Positions 6,749-19,875 are shown, counted from the first letter of the stretch. The stretch: DNA of 64,000 nt from an uncultured Gemmatimonadaceae bacterium (GCA_963829055.1 CAWHHI010000011.1:128001-192000); one strand, 5' to 3'. Numbers and translations: made by a program. Notes: generated by a model from the sequence alone, not told the origin.

Positions 6749-6899
6749 AGTTCGCCGGACTCGTAGGGGTGCACACGGGTAGGCTAGCTGGGAGGCTAGC
6801 CGGCCATTGTCGCACTGGCAGGGCCCATCATACCACTCTACATTGGCGCTTGCCACGCTGATACCTCCCCGCGGTACGGTCCGCCCCTTCGGAGGCGCG

Positions 6900-9800
6900 T
6901 TGGAAGCTGCCAGACACCCAGGCTCCATTATCGCCAGTCGCTATACGTTAGAGCGCGAGCTCGGACGTGGCGGGATGGCAACGGTGTACCTCGCCCGCGA
7001 CAGCCGACACGACTCGCTCGTCGCGATCAAGATTCTGCATCCCGAATTCGCACCGTTGTTCGGCGGCGAGCGGTTCGCGCGCGAGATCCGCATCACGGCC
7101 GGACTGCAACACCCGAACGTCGTGCCGGTGCTCGACTCGGGGGACGCCGACGGCCTGCCCTTCTACGCCATGCCATTCGTCGACGGCGAGTCGCTGGCGA
7201 CGCGGTTACAGCGAGAGCATCAGCTCCCGATCAACGACGCGCTCGGCATTGCGGCTGAGGTCGCCGATGCGCTCGCCTACGCGCACGATCGCGGCTTCGT
7301 GCACCGCGACATCAAACCGCAGAACATCCTGCTGTCGAACGGCCACGCCGTGCTCGCGGACTTCGGCATCGCGCGCGCCATGGACGTCGCCAGCGGCGAG
7401 AACATCACCGAGTCGGGTGTCGCACTCGGTACGGCAATGTACATGAGCCCCGAACAGGGTTCGGGCGGAAAGGTCGACGGACGGAGCGACATCTACGCAC
7501 TCGGCTGCGTGTTGTACGAGATGCTGGCCGGCTCGGCGCCGTTCACGGGACCGACGTTGCAGACGGTGCTGGCGCGACACGCCGTCGATCCAGTGCCGCC
7601 GATCCGCACCGTTAGGCAGACGGTCGGTCCGGCGCTGGAGGAGCTGCTCGCGAGAACGCTGGCCAAAGTTCCCGCGGACCGCTTCTCGACGGCCCACGAG
7701 CTCAGGACCGCGATTGCCGGAGCAACCGCCGAGCAGGCGACGCTGCCGACGACGGCCGCCAGACGTGCATCGCCAACGCGCACGAACCGGCGGACCGCGA
7801 TCATGGCGGCGGTCGGCCTGGCAGTCGCGGCGATAGGCGTCTTGTCCTGGCGAGCGATCAGACCCGGCGCTGATGCTCTGGACCAGAATCGCATCGCGGT
7901 CTTTCCGCTGAGCCTACCCGCCGGATACACCGGCACCCGATCGTTAGGCGAGGACATCGCGACAATGATCGGCCATGCACTCGACGGAACCGGTCCGCTG
8001 CGCGCGGTGGATGGCTGGCGTCTGCTCGAGTCGCAGCCCGCCGCAGAACGCGTCTCGCCGGCGAACACTGTGCTGCGCACGCTCGCGCGCGAGCGTGGCT
8101 GCGCGTTCTACCTCGCGGGTAGCTTCGTTCAGCCCCCCGGTGATTCGCTGCGAGTGGTGCTTCGGCTGGTGGACGTGGCGAACGATTCGCTTGTGAAGAA
8201 GACGGAGGCGGTCGGCATTGCGGCGGATCCGTGGCGCGTCGGCGTTCGCGCCCTCAATCAGGTGCTGCCCACTCTCATACCCGCTGGCGCTGAGCGTGAG
8301 CTGGTCGCCGGTTGGCTCGACCGCGATCCTCAGGTGATCGCGACCTTCCTCCTTGGCGAGGCGGCGTTCCGTCGCGCGCGTCCAGCGGAAGCACTCGCGC
8401 GTTACCGCGATGCGCTGCGTTCCGACTCTACGTTCACGCTCGCGGCCGTGCGGGGCGCGCAAGCAGCAACGTGGGACCATCGACCGAGTGAGGCCGCGTC
8501 GCTGATCCAGGCGGCACTCGCGCAGCCCATGACTCCGCGTTATGCACACTTCGCTCGCGGCTACGCGGCGTACCTCCAGGGCAACGCCGACTCGGCCACC
8601 GCCGAGTTCCACGAGGTGCTGAAGGTCGATCCCGACATGGCGACGGCGTGGATGCAGCTCGGCGAGACGTACACGCATCTGCTGCCCGTGTCGGGCGACC
8701 CGACGCTCGCGGCGGACAGCGCATTCGCCGAGGCCATGCGCCTCGACCCGTCGGCGTCGCACATGTTGTTTCATCCGATCGAGATTCGGCTGCGCCGCGG
8801 CCAGACGCCCGAGGCCGCGCCGCTCATTCGCCAGTTCCTCGCTGCGGACCCCGACTCGACGCTCGCCGAGCAGATCCGGGTCATGGATGCGTGCGTGTCG
8901 CGTGGCCCCGAAAGCGTGGATTGGGCGAAAGCGATTGCCACTCGCCCGATGGCGGTGTTGTTCGCCGCACAGTCGCTCGCGGTGGCCGGCGCCCAGTTGC
9001 CGTGCGCAGCCGCCGCGTACACGGCCATTCGCGTCCACGAGACACCGGCGATGGCCGCCGCGGACCCGGTCGTCGACACGCGGCGCTGGACTGCGCTCGT
9101 GGGGCTGCAGGGCGTCCTGCTGGCTGAAGGACTCGCGGAACAAGCGGGTCTTCACGTCGACTCGGCGGTCGCACGCGGCGAGGGTGGCCATTCGGTGATG
9201 CTCATCGACGGTGCACTGTCGCCGGCTTTCGAGGCGCGTGCCGCGCAGGCGATGCGGAAATACGAGGCGCAGTGGGGACCGCGCTGCGAGCGCTGCACGT
9301 CCAACGACCGACTCTGGCAGCTCGGCGTCTGGGCGGGGCAGCAGCGAGACACCGCGTCGCTGCGCGCGTTGTCTGCCGCACTCAAGACGCGCGCGGATTC
9401 CACCGGAGCGCGGGGGGTGGCGCTCATGGCGCAAGCCACCGCGGCGCGTGCAGCACTCGCGCGCGGGGAGCTCGCGCCCGCAACGACGGCGCTCGAGGCC
9501 GTGCTGGCAACGCCCGTCGCGAGCGGCGGGGAACTATTATGGCGCGACGCGGAGGGCCGCGGCCCAGAGCGGCTGGCACTGGCGCGTGGGCTCATGCGGC
9601 AACGGCAGTTCAGACGCGCGATCGACGTTGCCGACGTGTTCGATTCGCCGGCGACGCAGACCTACGTCGCCTATCTCCCGGCCAGCCTCGAGCTGCGAGC
9701 TGCGGCTGCGGACTCGCTGGGAGACGCCTCGATCGTACCTCGCTATCGCGCGCGGATCGCGTCGCTCCGGGCGCTGGCGTCGGAAGCACCTCGGCCATAG
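6900..9800 (+). CDS. Membrane Ser/Thr protein kinase with C-terminal TolB-like/TPR region
   Basis: GRGGMA, VAIK, HRDIKPQN, DFG, YMSPEQ; TM segment AIMAAVGLAVAAIGVLSW; TPR-like helices; TTG start at 6900 after GGAGG. Confidence 0.92.
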   Translation: MEAARHPGSIIASRYTLERELGRGGMATVYLARDSRHDSLVAIKILHPEFAPLFGGERFAREIRITAGLQHPNVVPVLDSGDADGLPFYAMPFVDGESLATRLQREHQLPINDALGIAAEVADALAYAHDRGFVHRDIKPQNILLSNGHAVLADFGIARAMDVASGENITESGVALGTAMYMSPEQGSGGKVDGRSDIYALGCVLYEMLAGSAPFTGPTLQTVLARHAVDPVPPIRTVRQTVGPALEELLARTLAKVPADRFSTAHELRTAIAGATAEQATLPTTAARRASPTRTNRRTAIMAAVGLAVAAIGVLSWRAIRPGADALDQNRIAVFPLSLPAGYTGTRSLGEDIATMIGHALDGTGPLRAVDGWRLLESQPAAERVSPANTVLRTLARERGCAFYLAGSFVQPPGDSLRVVLRLVDVANDSLVKKTEAVGIAADPWRVGVRALNQVLPTLIPAGAERELVAGWLDRDPQVIATFLLGEAAFRRARPAEALARYRDALRSDSTFTLAAVRGAQAATWDHRPSEAASLIQAALAQPMTPRYAHFARGYAAYLQGNADSATAEFHEVLKVDPDMATAWMQLGETYTHLLPVSGDPTLAADSAFAEAMRLDPSASHMLFHPIEIRLRRGQTPEAAPLIRQFLAADPDSTLAEQIRVMDACVSRGPESVDWAKAIATRPMAVLFAAQSLAVAGAQLPCAAAAYTAIRVHETPAMAAADPVVDTRRWTALVGLQGVLLAEGLAEQAGLHVDSAVARGEGGHSVMLIDGALSPAFEARAAQAMRKYEAQWGPRCERCTSNDRLWQLGVWAGQQRDTASLRALSAALKTRADSTGARGVALMAQATAARAALARGELAPATTALEAVLATPVASGGELLWRDAEGRGPERLALARGLMRQRQFRRAIDVADVFDSPATQTYVAYLPASLELRAAAADSLGDASIVPRYRARIASLRALASEAPRP

Positions 9801-10242: not shown

Positions 10243-12333
10243 ATGACCACCGAATCGACTGCTGCGCCATCCGGTGCGAAGCGCGCCCTGCTCATCGGCG
10301 TGGACCAGTACCAGTCGCCGAAGATCCCGAAGCTCCAGGGGTGCGTGAACGACGCTGGTCTCATGCGGACCATCCTGCTCGAGCAGTTCGGCGTTCCAGA
10401 GGCAAACCTGACGCTGCTCACGGATGAGCGGGCCACGCGCGATGCGATTCTCGCCGCGTTCGACAAGCTCGTCGCCGACACGGGTGCCGACGACGTCGTG
10501 GTGTTCTACTACGCGGGTCATGGCTCGCAGATGACCGACCGCGAGGGTGACGAGGCGAGTGGGCTCGACAACACGATCATGCCGGTCGATAGTGAAGGCT
10601 GGTCGGGGATCAACCGCGACATCACCGACGACGAGATCCATCTCCGTCTCGTCGCGTTAGGTAAGAAGACGTCGTACATCACGCTCATCGTGGACGCGTG
10701 CCACTCGGCCACCATCACGCGTGATGCCTTCGGTGTGATGTCCCGCGGGGTGCAGGCGGACACGCGTCCCGTGTCGGAGCTGCCACCGTCGCCCATACCG
10801 CAGGCGGCCACGCGCTCGGCGTCCGGCGTGCGGAGCGAGAGTGGTCCGAGCGGCTGGATGCCACTCGCCGATCAGTACGTGCTGATCGCCGGCTGCCGCG
10901 ATGAGGAGACGTCGTTCGAGTATCGTCCACCCGAAGGAGACGGAAAGCTCGTACACGGCGCGCTCACGTACTTCCTGTCGCAGGAGCTCGGCCGCGCCAC
11001 GCCCGGCACGAGCTACCGCGACGTGTTCGAACGCGCGGCAGCTCGCGTCACCGCGAACAACGCCAGGCAGCATCCGCAGATGGAAGGGCGCGTCGATCGC
11101 GCACTGTTCGGCGTCGCCGATCTGCAGCCGATGCATTTTACGCGCGTGGTCTCACGAACCGGCGACACGGTGACGCTGGCCGCCGGCGCCGCCCAGGGGA
11201 TGACGGTGGGATCCGTGTGGGCGGTGTACCCGCAGGGCACCAAGCACACCGAAGGCGCCTCCGAGCTCGGGACGGTCGAGATCACCCAGGTGGGCGGCGT
11301 GAGAGCCAGCGCGCGCGTGACCTCGGAAACGACCCCGAATGCGATCGCGAGCGACACACGCGCGGTGGAGCGCGTGCACGCCTACGGCACGATGCGCATG
11401 CGGGTGCAGCTCGCGCCTAACGTGGCTGCCGCTGAAGCGCGCGGTGTGGCGCAGGCCAGGTCGCTGCGTGAAGCGCTGGCCGAATCGCGCCTCATCGAGG
11501 TCGTGGGCGCCGACGATGCCACCGCCGCCGCACGCATTTATCTCGTCGAGCCGCGCGCGGCCGCTGGGCCTGACGATCCGGTTCCACAGCTCGGCCCCGT
11601 CAGCGTTGCCGTGTGGGCCGTGGTCACGACGGACGGCCAGCTGCAGATGCCGCCCAAGCCGCTCGACGCGTTCGCGGAGGTGGGTGAGAATCTCGAGACG
11701 CTCGCCCGGTGCCGGCAGGCGCTCGACCTCGAGAACCCGAGCCCGACGAGCACACTCCGCGGCAAGTTCGAGCTCGAGCTGCTGCGTCGCGGTGCCGACG
11801 GCAAGTGGGTGGTCGCGCAGCCCGAAGTCGCCGGTGGTCTGCCGGTGTTCACTGACGGCGACGACATCGCGTTCGAGATCAAGAGCCGGCACGACGTCAA
11901 CGCGTTCGTGAGCCTCCTCGATTTCAGTCCGACTGGCGCCATCTCCCTCGTCTTCCCGGCGCCTAACGCCACCGATCAGATCACGCCCACGGTACGGTTC
12001 CAGATCGGGACGCGCGGTGGTGACGACGACTTCGCGGTGTCGTTCCCGTCGGGCTACCCTTATTCGGGTGGTTCGACGACTGCCCCGACGGACGCGCTCG
12101 AGACAGTAAAGCTGTTCGTGACGACGGCGCAGGCGGACTTCAAGTTCCTCGAGCAGCGCGGCGTCCGTGGCGTCGGCCAGTCTCCTGGTGGCGCGCTGCA
12201 ACTGCTGTGGGAGACGGCGGCCGGCATGGGGTCAATGCGCGACATCGGGCGTAAATCGGTGCCCGTGGACACCGAGGACTGGACGACGGTCGTGAAGCCG
12301 TTCACAGTGCGCCGCAAGCCGGCCGGCGCCTAA
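10243..12333 (+). CDS. Caspase-family (C14, metacaspase/orthocaspase-like) protease with C-terminal DUF4384-like domain
   Basis: KRALLIGVDQY, LQGCVNDA, YAGHG (catalytic His), DACHS (catalytic Cys), HGALT, QHPQ; beta-rich C-terminal domain (GDDIAFEI..SLVFP..ETVKLF). Confidence 0.9.
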   Translation: MTTESTAAPSGAKRALLIGVDQYQSPKIPKLQGCVNDAGLMRTILLEQFGVPEANLTLLTDERATRDAILAAFDKLVADTGADDVVVFYYAGHGSQMTDREGDEASGLDNTIMPVDSEGWSGINRDITDDEIHLRLVALGKKTSYITLIVDACHSATITRDAFGVMSRGVQADTRPVSELPPSPIPQAATRSASGVRSESGPSGWMPLADQYVLIAGCRDEETSFEYRPPEGDGKLVHGALTYFLSQELGRATPGTSYRDVFERAAARVTANNARQHPQMEGRVDRALFGVADLQPMHFTRVVSRTGDTVTLAAGAAQGMTVGSVWAVYPQGTKHTEGASELGTVEITQVGGVRASARVTSETTPNAIASDTRAVERVHAYGTMRMRVQLAPNVAAAEARGVAQARSLREALAESRLIEVVGADDATAAARIYLVEPRAAAGPDDPVPQLGPVSVAVWAVVTTDGQLQMPPKPLDAFAEVGENLETLARCRQALDLENPSPTSTLRGKFELELLRRGADGKWVVAQPEVAGGLPVFTDGDDIAFEIKSRHDVNAFVSLLDFSPTGAISLVFPAPNATDQITPTVRFQIGTRGGDDDFAVSFPSGYPYSGGSTTAPTDALETVKLFVTTAQADFKFLEQRGVRGVGQSPGGALQLLWETAAGMGSMRDIGRKSVPVDTEDWTTVVKPFTVRRKPAGA

Positions 12334-12371
12334 CGACGGTCTCGCGTCGTCCCGAGGAGCGCCAGCGGGCT

Positions 12372-12490
12372 GTCATCCCGAGCGTCAGCGAGGGACCTTC
12401 TGTGAATGTAATCGTGGCCAGATCCGGCCACGATGACCTTACGAGAAGGTCCCTCGCTGCGCTCGGGTGCCGCTGGCTCCTCGGGATGAC
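12372..12490. repeat. REP/REPIN-like element, family B (GTCATCCCGAG...AGGGACCTT...AAGGTCCCT...CTCGGGATGAC)
   Basis: Nested inverted repeats between convergent genes; homologs at 21597-21717 and about 56785-56895. Confidence 0.8.
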
Positions 12491-12498
12491 GATGACAA

Positions 12499-15400
12499 TC
12501 AGCGCGTGCACCGTTGCGGGGGTCGTGACCCCGCCGGAGCGTCGACGATCCAGCGGTCGATCGATTCCTTCGAGTACGCGACCGCGCAGGCGCGCGCCAG
12601 CCACGCTTCCGGGTCCGTCAGGATGCGTACGATCTGTCCCGCTGCGTTCACCGCCAGCAACGCGCGACCGCTGTCGCCGAACGTGAGCCCCACCGCCTGA
12701 CCCTGCCCCGTTTCGATCTCCCCGATGATGTCGCCGCGCGCCACATCGCCGAGCGTCACCACGCCGTCCGTGTCGATCGCAAACAGGCGCCCATCGGGCG
12801 AGAGCGCGAACACATCGGGAGGCGGCCCCGATTTCCAGCGAAAGCGTGACGTCGGCTCGTGCCTGCCGCGCGTCCAGAACTGCACCATGAGGCCGTCGAG
12901 CGCCGCGACCACACTACCGTCCGCGCTCGTGCCCAACCCGGCGTACACTCCGATACCACTCAGTGAATCACGGACCCGCCTGGTCGCGAGATCCCACACC
13001 AGAATCGAAAACTGCGGTCCCTGCGTGACGAGCAGGTCTCCGCGCGGACTGAATTCCACCGGCGCGGGAAGGTTCGAATCCCAGAACTTGGGGCCGTTGT
13101 CGATGCCCGCGCGGAGAGTGTCCGCGGTCCTCGCGGCGAGATCCGCTACCACGACGGTGCGCGTACCCGGCAACGCGTACGCGACGCGTGCGGTCGATGC
13201 ATCCACCGCCACGGCAGCGTCCTTCGGGCTACCGACCAGCCGGTCCGGTGCGTCGCCGGCACCCTGAAACACGTACGCCGGCCCGCCGTCGCCATCGCTC
13301 GAGCCAGCGACGAGGAGACCGCCCGATGCACCGATGTACACATCCTGGCCGACGATGCGCCGGCGCGCCGCGCGGTCGTAGACGGCGCCGCGAACAGCGG
13401 GCGACGCGGTGATATCCCACACCGCGAGCTCGCCCCCAAACCCCCGTTGCGTCACCGCGAGCCTTCCATCCTTCGTTAGGCTCGTCACTTTCGTGGCCGT
13501 GTCGATGGGTAGCGCCGAGCGACGTATCAGTGCGCTATCGGCAAGATCCCAGACGTGAACGGTGCCCTCCAACGTGAGCGTCGCGATGCGGCCGCGCGTT
13601 CCGCTCACCACCAACACGTCGGGGATGTCGCCCGCCCCGTGCAGCGTGAGCGATGGCGCTCCCGGGTCCAGAGGCTGACTCGCGTCCAGGGGGCGCTCGA
13701 ACACGCGAACCTCGCCGTTCGGCGCAGCCGCCACCAGCGCCGCGTCGCGCTCCGTGAACGCCACGTCGCTGAACGTGACGCCAGTCATGAGACGTGCAGG
13801 CCGGTTCGACCGCAGCGGCCATAACGCGAGCGTATCTCCGGACGTCATGCGACCCGAGATGACCAGCGTGGAATTGTCGCGACTCACGGCGACGCCGGGT
13901 GGGAGAAAGCGAGAGCCGCCGCGCACGGTCCGCACCAGTTTCCCCGTCGCGACGTCCCAGACGCTGGTGCGCCCATTGTCCGCCATCGTGACCACGAGCG
14001 AGCCGTCCGTGCTGAACGCCGCTGGGAACGGCGGACTCGTGTGCCCGACGAGACGACTGCGCGAGCGCCCTGTCTCGAGGTCGAACAAGACCACGTCGTT
14101 GCCCTCGCCAACGGCAACCACGTGGCGCCCGTCGGCCGTTGGCGGTCCCACCCGCCAGGCGAGCGATTCCGGCCAGCTGGTGCCTGCCACGGGTGTCTCG
14201 CCTAACGACAGCGACAGCGAGTCGGACACCGCGGCCGCAATCGCCGCGGCCTTCGTCTTCTTCGCCTCGCGCAGCTCGGCTTCGCTCCACCGGCGCACCG
14301 GGACCTCACCCAGCTTTCGCCCCGTGGCCGCGTCCCACACGCGGAGCGTCGCGACGTCCGACGTCGAGTCACCCGAGACCGAGCTATACGTCATTCCGCT
14401 CGCGTCGAGAGTGACGGCGTTGCGATTCACCTCGGCCGGAAACGCCGTCTGCCGCGTTTCTACTCCGGTCGCGACGTCCATCGTGTAGATGCCATCGGGC
14501 CCCACGAGGAGCGCCCGCTCGCCATCGGGAGCAAACACCAGCTTCGTTCCGCCAGTGGAGGTCACGCGTACCAGCGTTGGGTCGCGCGCGAGCTGCGTGA
14601 ACAGCGCGCGCCGCGCCTCGAACGTCGGCGACTGCTGGTACGACGCGACGGCGTAGAGGAAGCCCAGGTCGCGTTGTTCCGGATCTGCTGACGATGCCCG
14701 CGCGCCCCACTCGCGCGACGTGCTGTCGGCGAGCCGAGCCTGCGATTGCCGATACAGAATCCAGCTGCCGACGCCGAACGCCGCGATGAGCGCGGCCGCG
14801 GCGATCGCACCGCGAACGACCCACGCGCGACGACGTCGTGCCCGATCGCGTTCGACGCGACTCGCCGCGACGAGCGCCCGCTCCTCGTCGTTCCACGCAC
14901 GCATCCCGCTCTCGCCAGTCTCGACCACGGCCAGGTCCGCCGCATCGAGTGGAATCCCGACGTGGCCATCTTTCCACTCGGCCGACCGCCCATCGAGCAC
15001 GCGCTTCGCCCTCGGCCCTGGCAGATCGGAGCGATCGAAGCGGTCGCGGACGATTGGCGCGAGTGTATCGTGGGCGAGGCGCGCCGTCGGATCCGCGAGC
15101 GGTGCACCGGTATCGTCGGTGTCGCGCACGACCAGGAGAAACAGTCGCGCGCACATCGCGCGAAGCCCGGGCGCCGTCTCGTTCGCGTGCGGATAGCGCT
15201 TGCTCTCTTCGCTGGCCGAGTGCTCGTCGGACGTCGCCTTGGGCGTCGTATAGAAGCGGAGGAATTCGAGCGCGAGACCGGAATCGACCGCCGCGGCATT
15301 CCAGGTGCGGAGCGCCTCCAACTGCTGCGTCACGAAGCCGTCGAGCTGCTTCGCTTTCGCGCGCACCGTTTCGTACAGCGCGGCGTCGAAGCGGACGACG

Positions 15401-17143
15401 TTCGCGGGACTGCCCTTCCGAGGCGCATCGGCCCACAGCTCCGCGAGCAGGATCTGCAGCAGCGGCGCGACGTGCGACGCGCGATTCGCGAGCAGATCGT
15501 CGGCGATCACGACGTCGAGCCCAGCCTCGAGCTCGAGACGCGTTGGCATTCGTCGCGCGGGAACGCGCGTTGGTCCGGTGATCGCCTCCAGCACGCCGCC
15601 GCGTGTGAGCTGCTCCAGGCGATGCTCGGTGCGAGCAACGCGGTGCGCCTCGAGCGCGCCCTTCACTTCCGACAGCCACTCCTTCCGGAATCCGAGTACG
15701 AGTCGCCCACGTGGGCGCGTCGCAGGCGTCGCGAAGAGATTCGCGATGGCGGCGGCGAACGCGTCGAGCTCACGCGCGCCGCTGCCTGCCGCGACGCGTC
15801 CCGCATCCTCGCTCGTGTACGCCTCCTCGAGCTGGTCGACGACGACGAACAGCGGTCGCCCACACTGCGCCTCGACGGCCCGCCACCGCTCGGCCACGGC
15901 CTCCGCGTCCGTCGCACGAGTGGCCTCGACGCCGAGCGTCGTGGCGAGTGTGCCGAGCAACCCGAGCGCGCGGTCGCGAGGCGCGTAGCGGACTTCGTGA
16001 GTACTCGTTAGGCGCGGCAGCAGCCCGGCGTCGAGCAGCGACGACTTGCCGACACCGGTCGCGCCGTACAGCAGCACCACTGACTCGGACGCCGCGCTCG
16101 TGACCTTGTCGTACAGCTCGCGAATGTCCTTGCCGCGTCCGAAGAACAGCTCCGCGTGCTTGCGGCTGAACGGACGCAGGTGTCTGAACGGCTCGGTGAG
16201 CGGCTCGTCGGTTTCCGGTAGCGTCGGCAGGCCGAACAGCGGATTTCCCGCAGCTTCGGGGAGCGCCCATGGACCGACCGTCTCCTCCGCGCCGCGCCGG
16301 AAGTAGAGGTCCCATGGCCAGCGTCCGTCGTCGGTCGTGACCGCGCTCTTCCGGCCAATGTCGCGGCTGCCTGACGATTCCGGCGCTGGTTGCACCACCT
16401 GCGACGCTGCGTCCGCGGAGGCGTGCATCGAGTCCGCCGTCGAGCCGCGGGCTGACCGCTCCGTGCTTGAAGCGAACGCCTGACGCGGCCTCGTCGTACG
16501 CGCGCTTGATGCCCGCCCCGCTTCCGAGTCCCTGATACAGCAGCACCGCGAACTGATGCGCGATCGCATCCTCGACGCTCCGCGACGTCGCCACCACGGC
16601 ACCAACGCCGGCGTCGCGGAGCGCGTCGACGTGCGCCTGTGTTGCGCACGCGTTGAGCACGACGAGCTGCAGCCCACGCTGACAGCCGAGGAACGCGGCG
16701 AGACCACTGGCATCGGCGACGGCCGTGGTGCCATCGGCGGTTTCGAACAACAACCCTTCTGGCCCGGCATGTCCCGCGAAGTGCAGAACGCCGATCCGGT
16801 CGCGATACGCGTCGTTCTGAAAGACGCGCATCACCTGCTCCGGCGTCGCATCCGGCAGCGTAACGACCTCGCAGATGCCGCCGCTCTGTGCCTCGCCGAG
16901 CGCCGCGACGATGTCGTTGAGCTCGAGGCTCAAGCTCCGGAGATGCCGCGCCCCCACAGCCTCGTTCGCGGTCGCGACGAGAATGACGGGCGCTCGACGC
17001 TCTACCGGTGCTGCGGTGGACGTCGACGCGTCGAGTGTCGGAGACGCGGGAGCGACGGTGTCTATGGGTTCCTTACGCTGGGAGCGGACAGGATACGTTA
17101 GCGCGGGCTGCTGCGTGCCGGAAGCGTCCGCCACTCCAGGCAC
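12499..17143 (-). CDS. CHAT protease - nSTAND-type NTPase - TM - WD40 beta-propeller protein (NLR-like); frameshift near 16450
   Basis: N-terminal frame has HFAGH and LNAC (CHAT dyad). Main frame has PFRHLRPF..FFGR, Walker A GATGVGKSS, Walker B VVDQLEE, PLLQ, a TM helix and many WD repeats. Start is uncertain. Confidence 0.85.
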
Positions 17144-17489: not shown

Positions 17490-19875
17490 CTACTGGCTCA
17501 CCCCACGCGAGTCACTCACCGGCAAGTGCTCGCGCAGATATCGCGTGAGCAGCGAATACAGGTGCAACGACGTCCCCTCCCCTTCGCAGATGCAGTGCGT
17601 GCGGTTCGGGTAGGCCATCATGGTGAACGGCTTGTTCGCCTTCACCAGCGCGTTGACGAGCGCTTCCGTGTTCTGATAGTGCACGTTGTCGTCGCCGCTC
17701 CCGTGCACGACCAGCAGGTCTCCCTTGAGTTGATCCGCGAACGTCACCGGTGAGCCGTTCTTGTAGCCCTCCGGATTTTCCTGCGGCAGCCCGACGTACC
17801 GCTCCTGATAGATCGTGTCGTAGTAGTGAAGGTCGGTCACGGGCGAGACCGCCATGCCCATCTTGTACACATCGGGCGTGCGGAACATGACGTTGAGCGT
17901 CGTCGCTCCGCCGCCGCTCCAGCCCCATACCGCGAGCCGCTGCGGATCCACGAACGGCCACTTCCCGATCGCGCGCGCGGCCGCTGCCTGATCGCCGCCA
18001 TTCAATACGCCCATCCTGTTGTAGATGGACTTCCGCCACTCGCGCCCGCGCGGCGCCGGCGTGCCGCGATTGTCGACGCTCATGACGATGTACCCCATCT
18101 GCGACAGCATGAGATGCCACAGATACGTGCCACCGCCCCACGAGTCCACGACCGTCTGCGACGCGGGCTCGCCATACACGTGGAACAGCACCGGATATTT
18201 CTTCGTCTGATCGAAGCCGGGCGGCTTGATCATCCATCCGTCGAGCTGCACGCCGCCGCCGATGTCCACGCGGAAGAATTCGCGCGGGCCCTGCTCGAGT
18301 CCGGCGAGCTTCGCTCGGAGCGCCGCGTTGTCCTGCAGCACTCGAACGCGACGGTGATCGGGGAGCGTGATGATCTCGACCGTCGGCGGGGCGCCGAACG
18401 ACGACCACGTGTGCACCGCATAACGCCCGTTAGGCGAGAGGAGATACGCGTGCGTTCCCGGCTGGTCGGCTGGGGTGACGCGCGTCGTGACACCCGGCTT
18501 CTTGAGCGACGTCCGATACAGGTAGAGCTGCGTCGGGTTCTGCGGCGACGCGTAGTGATAGAGATACTCGCCCGTCGCATCCGGGCCTAACACGGCAAGC
18601 GCGCCGAACGCGGACGCCGGATGTGAGACGTCCATCGCGTCCGCACTGAGCGGCGTGACGGTCGCGCCGTCGCGCGTGACGCCGTACATGCGCCGCCAGC
18701 CGCTGCGCTCGCTCATCCAGACGAACCGACGGTCGGCGTCGATCCAGCGCACGTCACTCACCACATCCACCCACGCCGAGTCACGCTCGGTGAGCACGGT
18801 GCGGACGGCGCCTGTGCTCGCGTTGGCGAGCAGCACATCGATCTGGTTCTGACGCCGGTTGAGTCGCTGGATCAGTAATTCGCTCGAGTTCTTGTCACCC
18901 GCCCAATCCATGCGCGCGAGGTACTGATTACGCGGGTCTCCATCGATGGCGAGCCATCGTGTCGCGCCGCCGGCAGCCGGGATGACGCCGATGCGGCCGG
19001 CGGAGTTCGTGGTGCCCGCTTTCGGGTACTGCACCGGATTCACGAACGAGTACAGCGAGTCGGTGTCGTCGATGAGATTGAAGTTCTTCACCCCGCTCGC
19101 GTCGAGCTGCCAGAACGCGATCGACTTGCCGTCCGGGCTCCAGCGGAAGCCGTCGCGAAGGCTCAGCTCCTCCTCGTATACCCAGTCGAACGTGCCGTTG
19201 ATGATCGTCCGCGACCCGTCGCGCGTCAGGCGCGTGATGGCACCGCTGGCGACGTCCTCGACGTAGAGGTCGTTCTGGCGCACATACGCGACGCGTCCGC
19301 CGTCGGGGGAGAACTTGGCGAACATGAGCGTGGACGCCGGCGCGTCGCCGCCGAGCTTGCGAAGGCCACGAGTGCCGAGGTCGAGCACCCAGTAGTCGCC
19401 GCGGGTGTTCTGCCGCCAGACCTTCTCCGACGCGGTGAAGACGAGGAGTCGCTTCCTGTCCGACGACCAGTCGTAGTCTTCGACGTCGAGCGGCGCGGCC
19501 GCCCCGTTAGGCGTGAGCCACGTCGTGGGCACGATGACGTCGCGCGCGCCCGTCCTGCGCATTGAACCGCGCCAGCTCAGCCGCCCCGGGCTGCTGCGGA
19601 TTTCCCTGGAGCGCGACGTACGTCGAGTCATTCAGCCACCGAAGCTGCCCGGCGCCACGCGCGGCGAACTCGCCGGACGCGAAGATGCGCTCGAGCGTGA
19701 GACGGCTCGGGCTCGACGAAGCCGGCGGTGTGGCCTGGGCGCCGGCGTGGGCAGACGCAATCAGCGCGATGGGGGCGATCAGAAGGGCACCAGCCAGCGC
19801 GGCGCCTCGAATGCGTGTGGGACACGGGCCGTATTTCCAATGCTCGGGTGAGACCGCGCCCACATCATCGGGCAC
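17490..19875 (-). CDS. S9B dipeptidyl peptidase IV-like secreted peptidase (frameshift near 19560)
   Basis: DWVYEEE, YPKAG, GWSGGG nucleophile, DDNVH, catalytic His; signal peptide and LTLERIF in the upstream frame; start approximate. Confidence 0.92.

Follow-up and report, generated by a model that had tools for sequence, protein, structure and literature searches.

A shared Arg-Asp motif in a metacaspase-like protease and a convergent CHAT-STAND protease of a Gemmatimonadaceae bacterium suggests a possible two-protease cascade

A stretch of 64,000 nucleotides from an uncultured Gemmatimonadaceae bacterium (GCA_963829055.1 CAWHHI010000011.1:128001-192000), called the window below, contains two convergent protease genes whose products share the heptapeptide RDIGRKS. 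One encodes a metacaspase-like Peptidase C14 protein of 696 aa (P0003; 10243-12333, plus strand), recognized from its open reading frame (ORF), translation, Pfam matches and AlphaFold2 (AF2) model. The other, delimited by ORFs and Pfam, encodes a CHAT protease fused to an nSTAND1 nucleoside triphosphatase (NTPase), a probable transmembrane helix and a WD40 region (12499-17143, minus strand), and it occupies two frames in the window. We tentatively read RDIGRKS as the local version of an Arg-Asp recognition or cleavage motif that would link the sensor-fused CHAT protease to the adjoining caspase in a two-protease cascade like SAVED-CHAT/PCaspase, serving immunity or cell death, a reading about which belief and doubt are close to balanced.

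The caspase combines a metacaspase fold with two additional beta-rich parts. Peptidase_C14 (PF00656) matches residues 13-283 with E = 1.9e-30 and 106.7 bits against a cut-off of 21.4. The protease domain lies at 10279-11091 (plus strand), with catalytic His93 at 10519-10521 and Cys153 at 10699-10701. The AF2 model, made from 67 homologues, has a mean predicted local distance difference test score (pLDDT) of 84.2. It consists of the metacaspase fold, a small beta-barrel at residues 297-379, and an immunoglobulin (Ig)/macroglobulin-like sandwich at about 503-690. The metacaspase fold matches AtMC4 (Z 24.5, root mean square deviation 3.5 over 258 residues), AtMC9 (Z 24.2) and Yca1 (Z 19.3), and all of the PDB sequence matches are metacaspases (Yca1, CaMca1, AtMC4, TbMCA2). 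The GCVND and DACHS segments of the caspase align with GCINDA and DSCHSG in Yca1 and CaMca1. H93, C153, R160, D161 and R168 are invariant in an alignment of 67 sequences (A1), and so are D37 and D151, which, by analogy with TbMCA2, would form an acidic S1 pocket. From the metacaspase matches and the literature, the C14 domain is predicted to belong with the caspase-fold enzymes that are specific for Arg or Lys. The C-terminal part (503-696) has middling matches to macroglobulin/Ig-like sandwiches (Z ~8), and a fold search with the whole long model, in which the sandwich was not queried separately, gave only generic Ig/macroglobulin-like matches for it. DUF4384 (PF14326) scores 21.7 bits in the window caspase, under its cut-off of 27, and several close homologues have a precomputed PF14326 match. 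The last beta-strand of the sandwich, WTTVVKPFTVR (12280-12312, plus strand), spans residues 680-690, and the block 681-690 has a mean pLDDT of 91.

Metacaspases and orthocaspases mature through cuts in exposed loops. The loop past the catalytic Cys of the caspase (residues 160-168; 10720-10746, plus strand) contains the invariant R160-D161 (ITRDAFG) and the invariant R168 (S-R168-G), the latter beside residues 162-167, which have pLDDT <50. Either could be a site of self-maturation, as both lie where the classic p20/p10 cut falls.

The convergent gene encodes a second caspase-fold protease, here fused to a presumed sensor. Its CHAT protease domain (16300-17026, minus strand) has its His at 16769-16771 and its Cys at 16646-16648, followed by a long flexible loop and the last strand WDLYF (16300-16314). 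The CHAT family (PF12770) scores 51.7 bits against a cut-off of 24, and an alignment of 68 sequences (A2) shows no variation at the His of HFAGHAG or at the Cys of LNACAT. The AF2 model of the CHAT region of an intact relative (P0248) is a caspase-like alpha/beta fold with a pLDDT of 81.8. The nSTAND1 NTPase domain (15205-16191, minus strand; PF20703, E = 2e-33, 117 bits against a cut-off of 27.1, residues 194-522) contains a Walker A motif, GATGVGKS, in the translation of 16042-16065 (minus strand). Between the NTPase and WD40 parts, a hydrophobic stretch of 25 residues follows an Arg-rich run (14752-14826, minus strand); judged by eye from the translation, it is probably a transmembrane helix. 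If that helix is real, the WD40 sensor would face outside the cytoplasm. The WD40 beta-propeller region, the presumed sensor (12571-14136, minus strand), matches several WD40 propeller families from residue 879 onward. No SAVED family is found among Pfam matches at E up to 0.01, and the sensor part consists of nSTAND1 and WD40.

The CHAT-STAND gene is split in the window by a single extra base. The CHAT domain lies in the ORF 15770-17143 and the remainder in the ORF 12499-16770, in a different frame, and the G+C content at third codon positions (GC3) moves between the frames at ~16470-16400. The split is caused by one extra base, a G on the minus strand at 16452, 87 bases upstream of the CHAT-side heptapeptide. 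In a DNA alignment this base is missing from two independent metagenome contigs that are 99% identical (L015 and L012), and a base at 16452 or 16455 is left out in the contigs of all three DNA runs compared (X1, X2, X5). A 99%-identical metagenome protein (P0128) is an intact single fusion of 1547 aa. Since the relatives and the run contigs lack the extra base, its probable origin is either a mistake in assembly or a frameshift that arose very recently, and the gene is read here as coding for one protein. A contig from an RNA library (run X18) spans 16232-16392, although contigs cannot show transcription.

The heptapeptide occurs exactly twice in the genome, about 4 kb apart, in the six-frame translation of 20 contigs (7,784,024 bases). 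The caspase copy (residues 666-672; 12238-12258, plus strand) lies within GSMRDIGRKSVPVDTEDW, and the window at 12220-12290 (plus strand) translates to AGMGSMRDIGRKSVPVDTEDWTT. The CHAT copy (16365-16345, minus strand; residues 220-226 of P0248) lies within GSRDIGRKSAVTTDDGRW, and the window at 16310-16380 (minus strand) translates to ESSGSRDIGRKSAVTTDDGRWPW. The codons are CGC GAC ATC GGG CGT AAA TCG on the caspase side and CGC GAC ATT GGC CGG AAG AGC on the CHAT side, with a mismatch at 6 of 21 bases. An extended degenerate pattern is matched by 2 of the 8739 genome ORFs, only this pair, compared with ~0.2 in shuffles; this count is descriptive only, because the pattern was drawn post hoc from the pair itself.

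Both copies are found in low-confidence loops 12-14 residues ahead of a confident terminal strand. In the caspase model, residues 665-668 (MRDI) have pLDDT <50 and lie between the helix 651-659 and the strands 672-674 and 680-690. In the CHAT model, the motif is within a stretch of pLDDT <50 (218-229) in the long loop between the helix 172-192 and the very confident strand 237-241 (WDLYF), and the same loop has a second low-confidence stretch at 196-205. The local context is common to the two copies: a helix, a floppy loop, R-D-I, acidic residues, a Trp and the terminal strand. A preliminary description of this DNA had reported an identical heptapeptide with different codons in two unrelated proteases, in likely flexible loops followed by acidic residues and a Trp. 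The translation and genome-wide count, the DNA of both sites and the AF2 models agree with it on the identity, the quoted codons, the flexible loops and the residues that follow. Two of its statements have to be corrected. The CHAT copy had been assigned to the linker between CHAT and STAND, but it sits inside the CHAT fold, between the last helix and WDLYF. Also, the proteases are not unrelated: the caspase fold is common to them (Z 13.3 between the caspase model and a solved chain of SAVED-CHAT), although the positions of the motif in the two proteins are not homologous.

The conservation of the motif points to selection on both sides. R666 and W680 are invariant in 67/67 caspase homologues (47-84% identity) within an otherwise variable stretch. 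Their neighbors are D/E at 667 in 51/67, I/V/A at 668 in 57/67 and T at 665 in 40/67, giving the consensus T-R-[DE]-[IVA] ... P-V ... [ED]-D-W-T-T. A distant paralogue in the same genome (contig 3, 34% identity) has DTREF...ADWVT at the matching place. In a Calditrichia caspase (L113:7437-9509, plus strand), Lys replaces the otherwise invariant Arg (GIKSQ...KDYWTT), and the STAND-type CHAT neighbor at that locus has no matching motif. On the CHAT side, R[DA]IxR[KQ] is present in all seven CHAT-STAND orthologues that cover the loop (RDIGRK, RDITRK, RDIKRK twice, RDIVRK, RAIVRK and RDIGRQ), and the low-complexity insert ahead of it varies in length from ~10 to 50 residues. The invariant Arg and the seven of seven matches despite the variable insert support selection on the motif, as far as can be judged from sequence. 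Strain variants in public runs are only synonymous in or beside the CHAT motif, at 16357 and 16336. Across CHAT-nSTAND1 proteins more widely, this place is often occupied by Arg, and the consensus is G..xR..Y ... DRWPW. The basic R-K pair after the motif Arg is limited to six clade members fitting the strict pattern, of 114 CHAT-nSTAND1 proteins. These CHAT-loop counts come from strict patterns only; a looser R-x-hydrophobic scan caught helix residues and was too noisy. In the same genome (G000), a second N-terminal CHAT protein (contig C20:30297-32219, plus strand) has PMRDIRAK...GERIPW as the equivalent loop.

The caspase family is associated with CHAT genes far above chance. All six close-orthologue metagenome loci with downstream DNA have the convergent STAND gene (L012, L015, L027, L018, L014, L026). 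Outside the clade of the window, the STAND partner is gone and another type of CHAT gene is found instead. Five loci have a Pfam-confirmed CHAT protein adjoining the caspase (L025, L048, L047, L030, L023), and local CHAT hidden Markov models (HMMs) recover all five of these ORFs, the wider HMM having itself been built from them. Of the 41 species-representative genome loci flanked by 4 kb or more on each side, 28 have a CHAT ORF (43/79 over all loci). About 0.03 CHAT ORFs are expected per 22 kb, from 10 CHAT-like ORFs in the 7.78-Mb genome. Many of the CHAT genes share the strand of the caspase gene and abut or overlap it (L145, L149, L095, L117). The module is found in Gemmatimonadota, Acidobacteriota, Chloroflexota, Rhodothermales, cyanobacteria and one archaeal (Methanoperedenaceae) metagenome-assembled genome.

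Across the wider family, the motif sequence differs among lineages and is matched between partners in part of the pairs. The caspase 8-mer from P2 to P6' about the conserved Arg was compared with the best ungapped Arg-anchored match in the adjoining CHAT ORF or ORFs. Matching versions include TRDGAMEG in the caspase and SRDGAMET in CHAT (L145, L149), TRDIVMAP and RRDIVMAS (L095), GRDAIRSR and GRDAIRVT (L111, L105, L031), TRDARRNQ and LRDARRPQ (L115), TRDMQVTV and ARDMQVHT (L117), TREARRNR and TRDARRTA (L109), and RRDLRTQE and RRDLRVSF (L143). For 8 of 43 pairs the within-partner shuffle p is <=0.02, that is, the match beats 98% of shuffles. After removal of loci with identical caspase 8-mers, 39 pairs are left. 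At least 6/8 residues match in 4/39 true pairs and in 5/1482 mismatched pairs (binomial P ~1e-5), and at least 5/8 match in 10/39 true pairs compared with 7.4% of mismatched ones (P = 4e-4). An earlier, rougher scoring gave a true mean of 3.91 versus 3.53 ± 0.09 in 200 permutations. When all six-frame ORFs of at least 100 aa were considered, the best non-self match was in the CHAT ORF at 11 of the 14 loci checked, with L104 tied at 5/8 with a different ORF; at L148, L150 and L018 no six-frame ORF of this length matched at 5/8. Two other ORFs flanking caspases have a local version of the motif near the N-terminus, ERDARRSS in L115:6005-9913 (plus strand) and TRDVRRRV in L104:5118-7196 (plus strand), and each could be a third carrier, or a substrate, of this code.

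The invariant Arg in exposed loops, the lineage-specific residues matched between partners and the obligate-looking gene pairing are most simply explained by a scissile or recognition site common to the two proteins. From these observations we infer that the motif is cut, that the cut falls after the Arg, that CHAT is the cutter and that cutting has an effect on the caspase. In the proposed cascade, triggering of the nSTAND1-WD40 sensor would make the CHAT protease active, and CHAT, the favored candidate for the specific upstream enzyme, would then cut the adjoining caspase after the invariant Arg (R666|D667) and change its activity. The copy in the loop of CHAT itself could be an auto-processing site, or a pseudo-substrate that fills the active site until activation. 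The preliminary description had proposed that cutting at R|DIG releases the CHAT domain, and this idea has to be dropped: a cut at R|D would not free the domain, because its last strand, WDLYF, is downstream of the motif. To judge from the model, the cut would instead nick the domain, as in caspase maturation. A complex prediction with the full caspase and CHAT residues 8-300 gave scores of 0.14 and 0.01, where the mark is 0.32, and was made without controls; it weighs neither way on binding. A more elaborate version, which we consider unlikely, is that CHAT-caspase pairs carry private, lineage-specific cleavage codes, each consisting of the invariant Arg and four to five co-evolving primed-side residues, that insulate the several paralogous cascades of one cell. 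In STAND-fused proteins, the CHAT-loop copy would then be a securin-like pseudo-substrate latch that is displaced by NTPase oligomerization, after which CHAT, as initiator, would cut the executioner metacaspase at R666. If this were true, bacteria would have their own equivalent of the apoptosome cascade, with an address label that can be read and re-programmed.

Several results weigh against a role of the motif in linking the two proteases, and some of them would be expected if the loops were independent, family-intrinsic features with structural or regulatory roles of their own and no cross-talk via the motif. BLASTP of the caspase against the CHAT protein gives the motif match an E of 1.5. 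Exactly one non-repetitive 7-mer is common to 27 neighbor pairs at most 10 kb apart, in a crude background set of 3919 high-GC3 ORFs from the same genome, which corresponds to ~0.3 matches per 64-kb window. The identity of the motif alone is thus only weakly evidence beyond chance; the signal is carried by conservation together with family-wide co-variation. When the caspase-tail and CHAT-loop profiles are compared with hhalign, the motif is the top local alignment, yet P is 0.011 and the probability 3.7%. With HMMs of the close-clade motif, built from orthologues with the window's own proteins excluded, the partner ORF comes only 277th and 47th in the scored matches from 23,655 six-frame ORFs, and with an HMM made from 51 distant caspase tails the CHAT ORF is not within the top 25 genome matches. 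The R[DE][ILVA] pattern is present in the loop of 35/114 CHAT-nSTAND1 proteins, counted without regard to a caspase partner. No co-variation is seen at the motif's free position in the nearest orthologous pairs: caspase and CHAT have G/G in the window, L012 and L015, K/G in L018 (RDIKRK and RDIGRQ), and K/T, T/V and K/V in P0018/P0129, P0015/P0132 and P0023/P0133, which were paired only on the ground that their contigs are equally long. The perfect 7/7 match in the window is therefore partly luck, on a shared core of R-D-I-x-R-K. In the wider family, 29 of the 39 de-duplicated pairs match at 4/8 or fewer, no better than mismatched pairs, and the P values overstate the case because related genomes are not independent. 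Most of the co-varying pairs have the CHAT copy N-terminal to the CHAT domain, ~10-25 residues before it or, in another architecture, ~80-120, so the arrangement in the last loop seen in the window is a positional variant. In addition, 13 of the 41 caspase loci have no CHAT within 10 kb, and either family has an Arg in its loop also where its partner is not in view. The two genes of the window, being convergent, are not co-transcribed. Coincidence is nevertheless quite improbable in our estimate: 6/8 matches occur in at least five separate, lineage-specific motif versions, always between gene neighbors, the caspase-CHAT association is strong (28/41 versus ~3%), and, descriptively, the post hoc extended pattern is confined to these two ORFs among 8739. 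The co-variation between species that the preliminary description proposed as a check is thus seen across the wider family (4/39 versus 5/1482 at 6/8 or better) and not within the window's own clade. The functional link that it drew between the two genes is favored by their association and by the family-wide matching, and is not supported by the close relatives.

The remaining alternatives accept a shared element and differ in how it arose or what it does. Copying of the motif DNA by short-tract gene conversion, or a common origin, could explain why the motif codons agree at 17/18 bases in L095 and at 16/18 in L145/L149. In the other pairs only 8-14/18 bases agree, the window copies differ at 6/21, and no similarity extends beyond the motif in the flanking residues examined around the paired motifs. 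DNA copying is unlikely because of these codon counts (8-17/18) and unrelated flanks; moreover, codon bias in G+C-rich genomes alone predicts near-identical codons for identical residues, and the motif occupies non-homologous places across CHAT architectures. This explanation is very improbable. Common descent of the two motif segments was also considered as a candidate and was rejected, as the hhalign result is marginal and the HMMs do not single out the partner. A reversed direction of cutting, in which the C14 enzyme, predicted to cut after Arg, processes its own C-terminal loop and the CHAT loop and so feeds back on, or activates, the sensor protease, is in our view unlikely. The nearest solved relatives of the C14 protein are metacaspases by sequence and by fold. 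According to the available text of the reports, orthocaspases cut after basic residues (PMC6426788) and a bacterial defense caspase has strict P1 Arg specificity (10.1101/2024.10.24.620036). The Arg is also invariant in the 13 loci without a nearby CHAT gene, as a self-processing site would be, and the second invariant Arg, S-R168-G, is in the classic maturation position beside a disordered loop after the catalytic Cys. Set against this, the bacterial caspases of this type characterized so far are promiscuous in the accounts available (10.1101/2024.10.24.620036; 10.1101/2023.06.23.546230), which is a poor fit to matching from P1' to P5', and CHAT is the specific upstream protease in the sole tested cascade. 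The motif could also be a non-catalytic docking or assembly element, with both loops binding one groove, for instance on the partner protease itself or on the WD40 propeller, or pairing together, uncut. Matching over five to six primed-side residues is more like a binding motif than a simple P1 specificity, and adaptor logic is established for such conflict systems through effector-associated domains (EADs), as far as the accessible text describes (PMC8195603). Docking is distinctly unlikely, though, on the evidence of the loops and partners: where a disordered loop near Arg-specific caspase-fold proteases has an invariant Arg with Asp, Glu or Gly next to it, a scissile site is the simpler reading, and the motif co-varies even with non-STAND CHAT partners that have no WD40 domain. 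Neither protein matches an EAD, Death-like or TRADD-N family (P0003, P0004 and P0005; Pfam, E up to 0.01).

The CHAT-caspase cascade we propose resembles several known systems and differs from each of them. In the type III-B CRISPR-CBASS locus of Haliangium ochraceum, the CHAT of SAVED-CHAT specifically cuts and switches on a C14 caspase (PCaspase), which degrades many proteins, according to the portion of the report available (10.1101/2023.06.23.546230). The window likewise encodes a sensor-fused CHAT protease beside a C14 caspase, an association found at most of the well-flanked loci (28/41), and the kinase that adjoins the caspase has a parallel in the Ser/Thr kinase (PCk) that the available text places in the Haliangium cluster. 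In contrast, an nSTAND1 NTPase with WD40 stands here in place of the cyclic-nucleotide-binding SAVED sensor, and the caspase has the added beta-barrel and DUF4384-like sandwich. Because its sensor is not SAVED, the window system at most works like SAVED-CHAT/PCaspase and is not a member of it. In the type III-E Craspase, the TPR-CHAT protein Csx29 cleaves Csx30 at one site, within a beta-hairpin of the C-terminal beta-barrel, and in some orthologues the C-terminal domain of Csx30 is DUF4384, in the accessible part of that report (10.1101/2022.08.17.504292). Both systems therefore pair CHAT with a dedicated partner that has a C-terminal beta-rich domain, and the caspase here matches DUF4384 weakly. 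By the same partial account, P1 of Csx30 is Met (AVGM|KKDK), unlike the invariant Arg here, and Craspase is RNA-guided and acts on a sigma-factor regulator, not on a second protease. In protease-effector modules, STAND- or beta-transducin-linked caspase-like proteases activate an adjoining latent effector by site-specific cuts, for example an alpha/beta-hydrolase zymogen at a conserved R|G, as given in the text available (10.1101/2025.11.14.688446). The long caspase forms are similar in being fused to a DUF7379 hydrolase with a conserved PA[ST]RGLVG before it. The effectors described in that text are hydrolases, Pepco and EACC1, unlike the second caspase-fold protease here, and a copy of the site inside the protease itself is not among the features it describes. 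In EAD systems, a homotypic adaptor domain is common to NTPase and effector proteins, in the accessible text (PMC8195603); the common element here is instead a 7-residue loop motif and not a folded domain. The caspase is like the C14B metacaspases (AtMC4, AtMC9, Yca1, TbMCA2) in its fold and catalytic dyad, with Z 24.5 to AtMC4. It is unlike the characterized metacaspases in its C-terminal beta-barrel and sandwich and in its pairing with a CHAT gene, and calcium-dependent regulation of the eukaryotic type cannot be inferred for it. In the Apaf-1/caspase-9/caspase-3 system, an initiator caspase is governed by a STAND NTPase that has WD40 repeats, and in turn cuts an executioner caspase at a defined loop site. 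The resemblance to this apoptosome is in logic only, with a STAND-WD40 protein and initiator and executioner caspase-fold proteases, and homology is not claimed. The initiator here is fused to the NTPase rather than recruited by CARD, and the predicted specificity is for Arg, not Asp.

Sensor-linked caspase-like proteases drive bacterial immunity and cell death, and to our knowledge neither the substrate nor the cut site has been reported for most of them. The two-protease logic of SAVED-CHAT/PCaspase and the STAND-sensor protease-effector modules are already known. What appears to be new is the occurrence of a STAND-WD40-fused CHAT together with a C14-DUF4384 protein, the breadth of the CHAT and C14-DUF4384 module and, most of all, a co-varying motif in both partners that names the likely site. 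A literature search, with preprint supplements outside its scope, turned up no account of a motif that CHAT and C14 neighbors have in common or that co-varies between them. If the proposed cascade is correct, this analysis gives a residue-level prediction for a widespread module: the caspase would be cut after the invariant Arg, 14 residues ahead of the conserved Trp, and the CHAT protein would be cut at its matching site. Because the motif differs among lineages and yet matches within pairs, motif swaps are a direct test of specificity, and they could give orthogonal protease switches. The occurrence of STAND-WD40-CHAT beside an executioner-type caspase also makes the apoptosome parallel experimentally approachable in bacteria.

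The caspase homologues vary in length and in the genes around them. Among the 120 homologues listed, 64 are long forms (among P0024-P0127) of ~1150-1200 aa fused to a DUF7379 alpha/beta-hydrolase, which is a stand-alone gene at one locus (L023:2206-3531). The conserved PA[ST]RGLVG ahead of the hydrolase recalls the reported R|G activation sites of hydrolase zymogens. Arg-Gly is not enriched in the long-form linkers (2.83 per linker versus 2.45 in shuffles), and only the position-specific PA[ST]RGLVG is notable in them; a literature search on DUF7379 found nothing. A close caspase homologue is present in only one of 60 related genomes (G024, 49% identity), on a 3.1-kb contig that is too short to hold a partner gene.

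In the window, the CHAT-STAND gene is adjoined by a dipeptidyl-peptidase IV/prolyl oligopeptidase (S9) gene (17490-19631, minus strand), with no evidence of a link between the two. Directly upstream of the caspase is a gene for a Ser/Thr protein kinase with TPR repeats (6807-9800, plus strand; Pkinase E = 8.3e-46 and TPR families in Pfam), and a kinase is found nearby at L025 as well. Three other loci have a second C14 caspase gene right after the first (L032:11985-14144, L048:5183-8560, L041:8583-12476), and some modules therefore consist of three caspase-fold proteases.

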